Origin: Naegleria gruberi
Lineage: Eukaryota
DNA length: 64,000 nt
Assembly (NCBI GenBank): GCA_000004985.1
Contig: GG738906.1
Reading direction: 5' to 3' (one strand)
Shown here: positions 52,576 through 52,986 of the stretch, piece after piece
How positions within the stretch are numbered: position 1 is the stretch's first letter
Layout: every line of letters begins with the position of its first letter
Made by a program: the position numbers and the translations under genes
The notes under the pieces: generated by a model
Told to the model about the DNA's origin: nothing
Seen by the model: only the letters and a program-made list of their open reading frames with translations
The model's database searches: none

Positions 52576-52986
52576 ATGAAATTCTATCAAGCATTACTGT
52601 TGTGTATTGTTATTGTTGGTTGTTTGTCATTTACAACAATGATAAATTGTGACCAATCACCAAATCAATTCAATGTAAAAAAGATTCCGATCACATCAAA
52701 TAATGAAACAACACTTTGTGAAGGATGTTTAATATTTGCAAAATTAATTGATGACATGATTGAATCAAACTATACAGCAACAAAGGTAATCGAAATTGTT
52801 AATAATATTGTATGTAGAAATTTATTAGAACACAACCTTTAATCTTTTTCAAAGTGTCCATACCTTTCTCCTGAAATCAAACAAGTATGTCCTCTATTTA
52901 TCAAACAATATGCTCCAGTGGTTTTGGAAATTATTGTTGCACGTGAAAATCCACATGTACTTTGTAGCTTTATTGGTGCATGTTAA
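52576..52986 (+). CDS. Small secreted saposin-like (SAPLIP; amoebapore/naegleriapore-type) protein, 2 exons. Not present as a single ORF in the track.
   Basis: ATG at 52576. Signal peptide MKFYQALLLCIVIVGCLSF. Exon 1 is 52576-52809. A 45-nt intron at 52810-52854 (GTATGT...TTCAAAG) is in phase 0. Exon 2 is 52855-52986. The spliced product has six Cys with exact saposin-B spacing: C-x2-C-x27-C-x10-C-x24-C-x5-C. Confidence 0.6.

Follow-up and report, generated by a model that had tools for sequence, protein, structure and literature searches.

A 64,000-nt stretch of the Naegleria gruberi NEG-M genome (contig GG738906.1 of assembly GCA_000004985.1; hereafter the window) holds a two-exon gene that runs on the plus strand from an ATG at 52576 to a stop codon ending at 52986. 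The spliced product is 121 aa long, and it is close to certain that the gene is real and encodes a saposin-like protein (SAPLIP). Orthologues stand beside the same neighbouring gene in N. fowleri and N. lovaniensis, and the substitutions among the three species show purifying selection on the domain. As for its function, we favor with moderate confidence an acid-activated binder of membranes and lipids in the endolysosomal or phagosomal lumen, and the sequence makes us lean towards the solubilisation of lipids for digestion.

The gene had been proposed in an earlier note on this DNA, in which an intron of 45 nt joined at 52809/52855 was said to divide the gene in the track of open reading frames (ORFs). 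All coordinates proved exact and the comparative evidence agrees with them. The features of the gene are:

52576-52578, plus strand: start codon ATG, the first in-frame ATG past an upstream stop
52576-52638, plus strand: predicted signal peptide for the endoplasmic reticulum (ER), residues 1 to ~21, reading MK, FYQALLLCIVIVGCLSF and TT
52576-52809, plus strand: exon 1, 234 nt, codons 1-78, with the signal-like segment, a linker of ~25 residues, saposin helices 1-2, Cys48 and Cys51
52702-52710, plus strand: N43-E-T sequon, seen in the sequence and non-conserved
52768-52776, plus strand: N65-Y-T N-glycosylation sequon, present in all three Naegleria orthologues and aligned with N-S-T of saposin D
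52809/52855, plus strand: exon-exon junction, GAAATTGTTAATAATATT/TGTCCATACCTTTCTCC, NNI/CPYL in the protein
52810-52854, plus strand: intron, 45 nt, phase 0, GTATGT...AACCTT...CAAAG
52834-52839, plus strand: AACCTT hexamer in the intron, a candidate branch-site box ([CT]AAC)
52840-52842, plus strand: in-frame TAA within the intron, seen in the sequence
52855-52986, plus strand: exon 2, 132 nt, codons 79-121 plus TAA (44 codons with the stop), with Cys79, Cys90, Cys115, Cys121, helices 3-4, a Y-x-P kink and the RENPHVLC motif
52984-52986, plus strand: stop codon TAA; the protein terminates at its last Cys

Left unspliced, the ORF halts at the intronic TAA after 88 aa. As the length of the intron is a multiple of three, exon 2 lies in the frame of exon 1, and the 3′ splice site is forced because the AG at 52853-54 is the only one downstream of the intronic stop. 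Both the GTATGT donor and the acceptor are canonical. Seen by tblastx, conservation with N. fowleri and N. lovaniensis ends at the edge of exon 1, and the translated exon 2 has 68% identity with N. fowleri. We infer that the 45-nt intron is removed in vivo. An alternative donor at 52786 (AAG/GTAATC), which would give an in-frame intron of 69 nt and remove the eight residues VIEIVNNI, was rejected because it would reduce the Cys2-Cys3 spacing to 19 and destroy the gapless fit to the orthologues and to saposin D. We also rejected a second intron placed after the last Cys codon, by which the protein would gain a C-terminal tail: there is no GT donor that keeps the Cys codon, and the frame downstream of the last Cys has no similarity to the tails of the N. 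fowleri and N. lovaniensis proteins, which speaks against such an intron.

The six cysteines of the spliced product (residues 48, 51, 79, 90, 115 and 121) follow the saposin pattern C-x2-C ... C-x10-C ... C-x5-C, and their spacing of 2/27/10/24/5 is identical to that of human saposin D, as expected from the single SAPLIP domain with perfect six-Cys spacing that had been predicted. By the rule of the family, the disulfides would be C48-C121, C51-C115 and C79-C90. A search with the Pfam profiles SapB_1 and SapB_2, which had been named beforehand as a possible refutation, exceeded both gathering cut-offs (31.4 bits against 25.2 and 29.7 bits against 21, respectively). Both scores are passed only when the intron is removed; the unspliced ORF matches SapB_1 only. 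The best sequence match in the PDB is human saposin D (E = 1.2e-8), which aligns without a gap over 75 residues and through the splice junction. By their scores, this alignment and the Pfam matches are far beyond chance. The domain covers residues 47-121, and no other domain is found in the 121 aa. Upstream of it lie the ~25-residue linker, with a conserved QF(N/H)V(K/M)KI motif, and a hydrophobic run at residues 3-21 with a 9-residue Kyte-Doolittle maximum of 3.68. The signal peptide claimed earlier is thus present as a hydrophobic, signal-like N-terminal segment, and by its hydropathy the N. gruberi N-terminus (MK followed by 17 hydrophobic residues) looks like a textbook short signal peptide.

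A structure model from AlphaFold2 confirms the superfamily. The input alignment consisted of three sequences and the confidence is moderate, with a predicted local distance difference test score (pLDDT) of 70-85 over residues 41-121. The model contains five helices (41-63, 68-81, 84-87, 90-106 and 111-117), which form the compact 4-5-helix bundle of SAPLIPs. When it was compared with the PDB by Foldseek, the top 15 structures were all SAPLIPs (saposins C, A and D, NK-lysin, Na-SLP-1 and amoebapore A), with target-normalised template modelling (TM) scores between 0.64 and 0.73 for saposins C and A, NK-lysin and amoebapore A.

To find relatives, 1.84 billion representative proteins were scanned with HMMER. 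Nearly all of the 973 hits are multi-domain prosaposin-like proteins; a single-domain protein of 154 aa was found once. This protein, FDP41_012547 of N. fowleri, is 51% identical to the query over the matched stretches and 74% identical to C9374_010997 of N. lovaniensis (156 aa). Both are named "Saposin B-type domain-containing protein" in UniProt and "hypothetical protein" in NCBI, and a literature search on the locus tags returned no papers. The N. fowleri gene models were made with BRAKER1 using RNA-seq (PMC6831594). Both genes lie directly 3′ of CCT-theta, on the same strand and tail-to-head, as in N. gruberi:

50784-52986 of the window, plus strand: CCT-theta/SAPLIP pair of N. gruberi; the pair, found in three Naegleria species, lies at 3854-6695 (L001) and 4088-6626 (L002) in the loci of the two relatives

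The pair is the sole synteny that the relatives have in common with window positions 40001-64000, the part compared. It has been retained in three Naegleria species while its surroundings were all rearranged. The two genes are 124 nt apart in N. gruberi, as against 482 nt in the N. fowleri locus and 248 nt in that of N. lovaniensis.

Each of the three genes has two exons and encodes one SAPLIP domain, whose cysteines are spaced alike in all of them. The N-x-T sequon and the motifs CPYL, PEI and RENPHVLC are also common to the three, and identity is ~50% overall. The introns of the orthologues (230 nt in N. fowleri and 155 nt in N. lovaniensis, vs. 45 nt in N. gruberi) interrupt the gene at the identical phase-0 position before the codon of Cys3, with the boundary residues KV/CPYL and KI/CPYL where N. 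gruberi has NI/CPYL. The orthologues differ from the 121-aa protein in their greater length, in a long N-terminus where N. gruberi has a short classical signal peptide, and in a tail after the last Cys, which is missing in N. gruberi. Across the three proteins 55 residues are invariant and all six Cys are kept. Over the 75-codon domain, the ratio of nonsynonymous to synonymous substitution rates (dN/dS) is 0.07-0.12 for the pair N. fowleri and N. lovaniensis and rises to 0.2-0.4 when N. gruberi is compared with either species, and identity is highest at second codon positions, followed by first and then third positions.

Environmental sequence provides a further comparison. Metagenome contig ERZ929261 (run ERR1078381, PRJEB11402) is 99.74% identical to the region, which implies that a very close relative of NEG-M was in that sample:

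51154-55044 of the window: matched by positions 1-3894 (L003) of contig ERZ929261

The SAPLIP gene is unchanged in this contig, whereas the intergenic DNA on either side differs at 5-6 positions; this is weak but consistent evidence for constraint on the gene. No further orthologue was confirmed among metagenome contigs. A profile search with the three orthologues returned the same three proteins only, apart from a metagenomic, prokaryote-style call of the unspliced ORF.

The exact 121-aa protein was not found in a collection of 15 billion proteins, which does contain the N. gruberi CCT-theta protein from NCBI, UniProt and EukProt. The only protein found to share 5-residue words with it was the prokaryote-style metagenomic call of the unspliced ORF. 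Word-indexed searches thus find this call only, and therefore no public model uses these exons. By these protein look-ups, the gene is indeed unannotated in the collection, as the earlier note had it. Small intron-containing genes are often missed by annotation. Unannotated genes are moreover a documented problem in N. gruberi (bioRxiv 10.64898/2026.08.18.745565), and the gene is another case of a small gene with an intron of 37-45 nt that escaped there. It adds one missing entry to the N. gruberi catalogue, with the counterparts in two sister species already catalogued. This matters for counts of membrane-active or antimicrobial effectors, or of candidate virulence factors, across Naegleria species, since comparisons with an N. 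gruberi proteome that lacks the gene would wrongly call it absent from the non-pathogen. The gene also shows that a conserved SAPLIP with one domain exists in Naegleria, separate from the naegleriapore precursors with their several domains. Beyond these two points we regard the finding as ordinary.

The sequence features of the domain tend to favor a lipid-solubilising helper of the prosaposin type over a dedicated channel former like the amoebapores. The PDB search matched 29 sequences at E <= 10. The human saposins D, C, B and A have E-values from 1e-8 to 1e-4 and granulysin has E = 1.4, whereas amoebapore A (1OF9) and NK-lysin (1NKL), both present in the PDB library, gave no sequence match at this threshold. 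Ranked by single-domain score, the nearest non-orthologous relatives have several domains and bear the names "saposin" or "proactivator polypeptide"; they come from Paratrimastix, Mantamonas, molluscs and metagenomes, and none of the ten that we looked up is from Naegleria. In addition to its gapless 75-residue match and Cys spacing, the domain shares with saposin D (3BQP) the sequon that follows helix 1, the Y-x-P kink of helix 3 and an acidic isoelectric point (pI), within the closed fold common to saposins A-D. Human saposins are glycosylated at the aligned N-x-T position. In a set of 1153 prosaposin-like domains, 60% have a sequon in that stretch and 55% have the helix-3 proline; amoebapore A and NK-lysin presumably have neither, unlike the N. 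gruberi protein. The likeness to saposin D has its limits. Identity is ~30%, and the grand average of hydropathy (GRAVY) is 0.10 in saposin D vs. 0.68 in N. gruberi. The four saposins are cut from a precursor that also carries SapA domains, whereas the N. gruberi protein has one domain in 121 aa, behind its own signal peptide. We know of no cofactor activity of the N. gruberi protein.

In the mechanism that we propose, the signal peptide would take the 121-aa pre-protein into the ER, the saposin-B domain would fold into a closed 4-5-helix bundle locked by three disulfides, and N65 would probably be N-glycosylated. The protein would be delivered to an acidic endolysosomal or phagosomal lumen, where the loss of negative charge at low pH would allow it to bind and disturb the membranes of ingested prey or of internal vesicles. 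The domain has a pI of 4.8, with a net charge of -3 at pH 7, about 0 at pH 5 and a positive value at pH 4.5, and its GRAVY of 0.64 places it at about the top 2-4% of the 1153 prosaposin-like domains (mean 0.21). Because the domain is both acidic and unusually hydrophobic, an acid-lumen mechanism seems the most likely.

Several observations weigh against this reading. The single-domain architecture is unlike that of a classical prosaposin, and the unusually high hydrophobicity points away from the prosaposin type. Pore formation at acid pH is documented for prosaposin-like Apls of Dictyostelium (PMC11542183), so a prosaposin-like sequence does not exclude pores. Neither can the fold separate lipid-presenting from pore-forming SAPLIPs, as the model superposes on NK-lysin with a TM score of 0.71 and on amoebapore A with one of 0.64. 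Hydropathy is the sole basis of the signal peptide call, and in N. fowleri and N. lovaniensis 11-16 residues precede a hydrophobic segment of ~20 residues, which could thus be a signal anchor in these two species. Finally, the spliced protein is absent from the collection, which includes assemblies of public sequencing runs, and the exon-exon junction (35 nt) was matched by none of the metagenome and metatranscriptome contigs of JGI.

The main rival, possible though we doubt it, is that the protein is instead a dedicated amoebapore-type antimicrobial or cytolytic peptide, stored in granules, released to phagosomes or targets and oligomerising into ion-permeable pores. A signal peptide followed by one SAPLIP domain is also the layout of the amoebapore precursor, and N. 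gruberi, like Entamoeba histolytica with its amoebapore A, is a phagocytic amoeba, and a bacterivorous one. The two proteins also have the fold and six Cys in common, and the amoebapore A peptide is mildly acidic or neutral, like the N. gruberi domain. The hydrophobicity of the domain and a charge that flips near pH 5 are as expected of acid-activated membrane insertion, and the superpositions on amoebapore A and NK-lysin and the precedent of the Apls fit pores as well. The sequence relationship points the other way, with E-values of 1e-8 to 1e-4 for the saposins and no match to amoebapore A or NK-lysin. In addition, His75 is reportedly required for the dimerisation and activity of amoebapore A, but the segment between Cys5 and Cys6 is devoid of His in all three Naegleria proteins (CSFIGAC in N. 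gruberi, CAQLGAC in N. fowleri and CQQLGAC in N. lovaniensis), the only conserved His being upstream of Cys5, within RENPHVLC. NK-lysin, granulysin and the Apls are cationic (PMC11542183), whereas the domain is anionic. The Apls are amoebal SAPLIPs with 1-5 domains per precursor and acid-dependent membrane activity, and some are prosaposin-like; those that have been characterised act by cationic charge on anionic lipids (PMC11542183), and the N. gruberi domain is anionic at neutral pH and no close sequence relationship to the Dictyostelium Apls was found. The pore formers known from Naegleria itself, the naegleriapores, come in several isoforms that are liberated from pre-pro-multipeptide precursors (PMC6723116). 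The N. gruberi protein shares with naegleriapores A and B the genus, the SAPLIP superfamily and probably glycosylation, naegleriapore A being described as heavily glycosylated (PMC8296547), but is set apart from them (A = Q9BKM2), by published precursor organisation only, as a single domain. A "naegleriapore-type architecture" therefore does not apply. The amoebapore/naegleriapore-type label of the earlier note thus finds no support in the amoebapore A comparison, the Cys5-Cys6 segment or the naegleriapore precursors, and we consider that label to be wrong or at least unproven. Nothing shows the protein to be a pore-forming toxin, and pores as such are unsupported rather than refuted.

Two further explanations concern the N-terminus and the state of the gene. 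We consider it improbable that the protein is a non-digestive SAPLIP, either fixed to a membrane by a signal anchor that stays uncleaved or exported to act in signalling or adhesion. There are precedents in the saposin domains of Dictyostelium countin and of acyloxyacyl hydrolase (AOAH) (PMC11542183). The hydrophobic segment of the orthologues, with its 11-16 preceding residues, is more anchor-like than signal-like, and no role is known for the conserved QF(N/H)V(K/M)KI motif that precedes the domain. Of the 208 proteins in the predicted secretome of N. fowleri, just one is listed as "Saposin", naegleriapore A (PMC6831594 supplement), suggesting that the orthologue was probably not predicted as secreted. 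However, the N. gruberi N-terminus is that of a textbook short signal peptide, and no other domain is present; similarity to countin was neither sought nor found. It is very improbable that the N. gruberi copy of the gene is silent or in decay, as it would be if it were a pseudogene in which splicing of the intron had ceased. This would explain both the missing annotation and the absence of a spliced product on record, and it could draw on the lack of a junction match, on an intron 3-5 times shorter than in the sister species and on the missing C-terminal tail. Against it, both exons are intact ORFs that retain the six Cys and the 55 invariant residues, dN/dS is well under 1 vs. both sister species, the splice sites are canonical, homology and frame indicate that introns of 37-42 nt are functional in the genes nearby, and the gene is unchanged in the near-identical environmental strain. 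Small intron-bearing genes are, as said above, commonly missed. We retain the acid-activated lipid binder as the best explanation. A bolder reading, that the three proteins form a genus-restricted and unusually hydrophobic single-domain SAPLIP lineage that has stood beside CCT-theta since the split of N. gruberi and N. fowleri and constitutes a third class of membrane-active effectors besides naegleriapores A and B, appears unlikely; if it were true, this class might aid the killing of prey or host cells by N. fowleri.

The gene lies in a gap of 995 nt between the CCT-theta stop codon at 52451 and the next ATG at 53447. The stretch had been described as an otherwise quiet intergenic region of about 1 kb, and this is borne out: minus-strand ORFs across the gap are <=30 aa, and scans for Rfam families and tRNAs found none above threshold. 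No other SAPLIP was found in the 64-kb window, either by tblastn or by a six-frame scan for the cysteine pattern. The GC content of the window is 33%, the same as the published figure for NEG-M (PMC8296547). The flanking features are:

50784-52451, plus strand: CCT-theta ORF, 555 aa, identical to EFC38582.1 / XP_002671326.1, UniProt D2VX84
52452-52575, plus strand: spacer between CCT-theta and the SAPLIP gene, 124 nt, GC 20%
53035-53042 and 53067-53074, plus strand: perfect 8-nt inverted repeat with a 24-nt loop, ACGTGTTT ... AAACACGT, flanking AATAAA
53043-53048, plus strand: AATAAA, candidate polyadenylation signal, 57 nt 3′ of the stop
53447-54997, plus strand: RimK-like ATP-grasp gene, 502 aa (RimK 159 bits, Rimk_N 53 bits)
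54148-54189, plus strand: intron of the RimK-like gene, 42 nt, GTACGT...TAG; the Rimk_N profile match spans the junction
55026-56694, minus strand: TPR/IQ gene, two ORFs joined in frame, 543 aa
56062-56026, minus strand: intron of the TPR/IQ gene, 37 nt, GTAAGT...CAG

The spacer would have to contain both the 3′ end of CCT-theta and the promoter and 5′ untranslated region of the SAPLIP gene, for which 124 nt leaves very scant room. Downstream of the gene, the inverted repeat around AATAAA may be a 3′-end element.

The RimK-like protein combines a hydrophobic, signal-like segment at its N-terminus with a Ser/Thr-rich region, an odd combination for a usually bacterial-type enzyme. Its gene lacks a counterpart at the syntenic loci of N. 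fowleri and N. lovaniensis, and an exact look-up of the spliced product in the protein collection found no entry. The TPR/IQ protein has an IQ motif and sub-threshold TPR matches, one of which crosses the junction.

With the SAPLIP intron, three very short, AT-rich GT..AG introns of 45, 42 and 37 nt are thus found within 3.3 kb. The genome-wide mean intron length in N. gruberi is 203 nt (PMC8296547). Judged by homology and frame, the introns of 37-42 nt function in the neighbouring genes, which suggests that an intron of 45 nt is credible locally. The hexamer AACCTT is present in all three, 5-15 nt upstream of the acceptor AG, a coincidence that was noticed post hoc. It is not enriched in the window (51 observed vs. 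57 expected), and it may represent the branch-site box of N. gruberi mini-introns.
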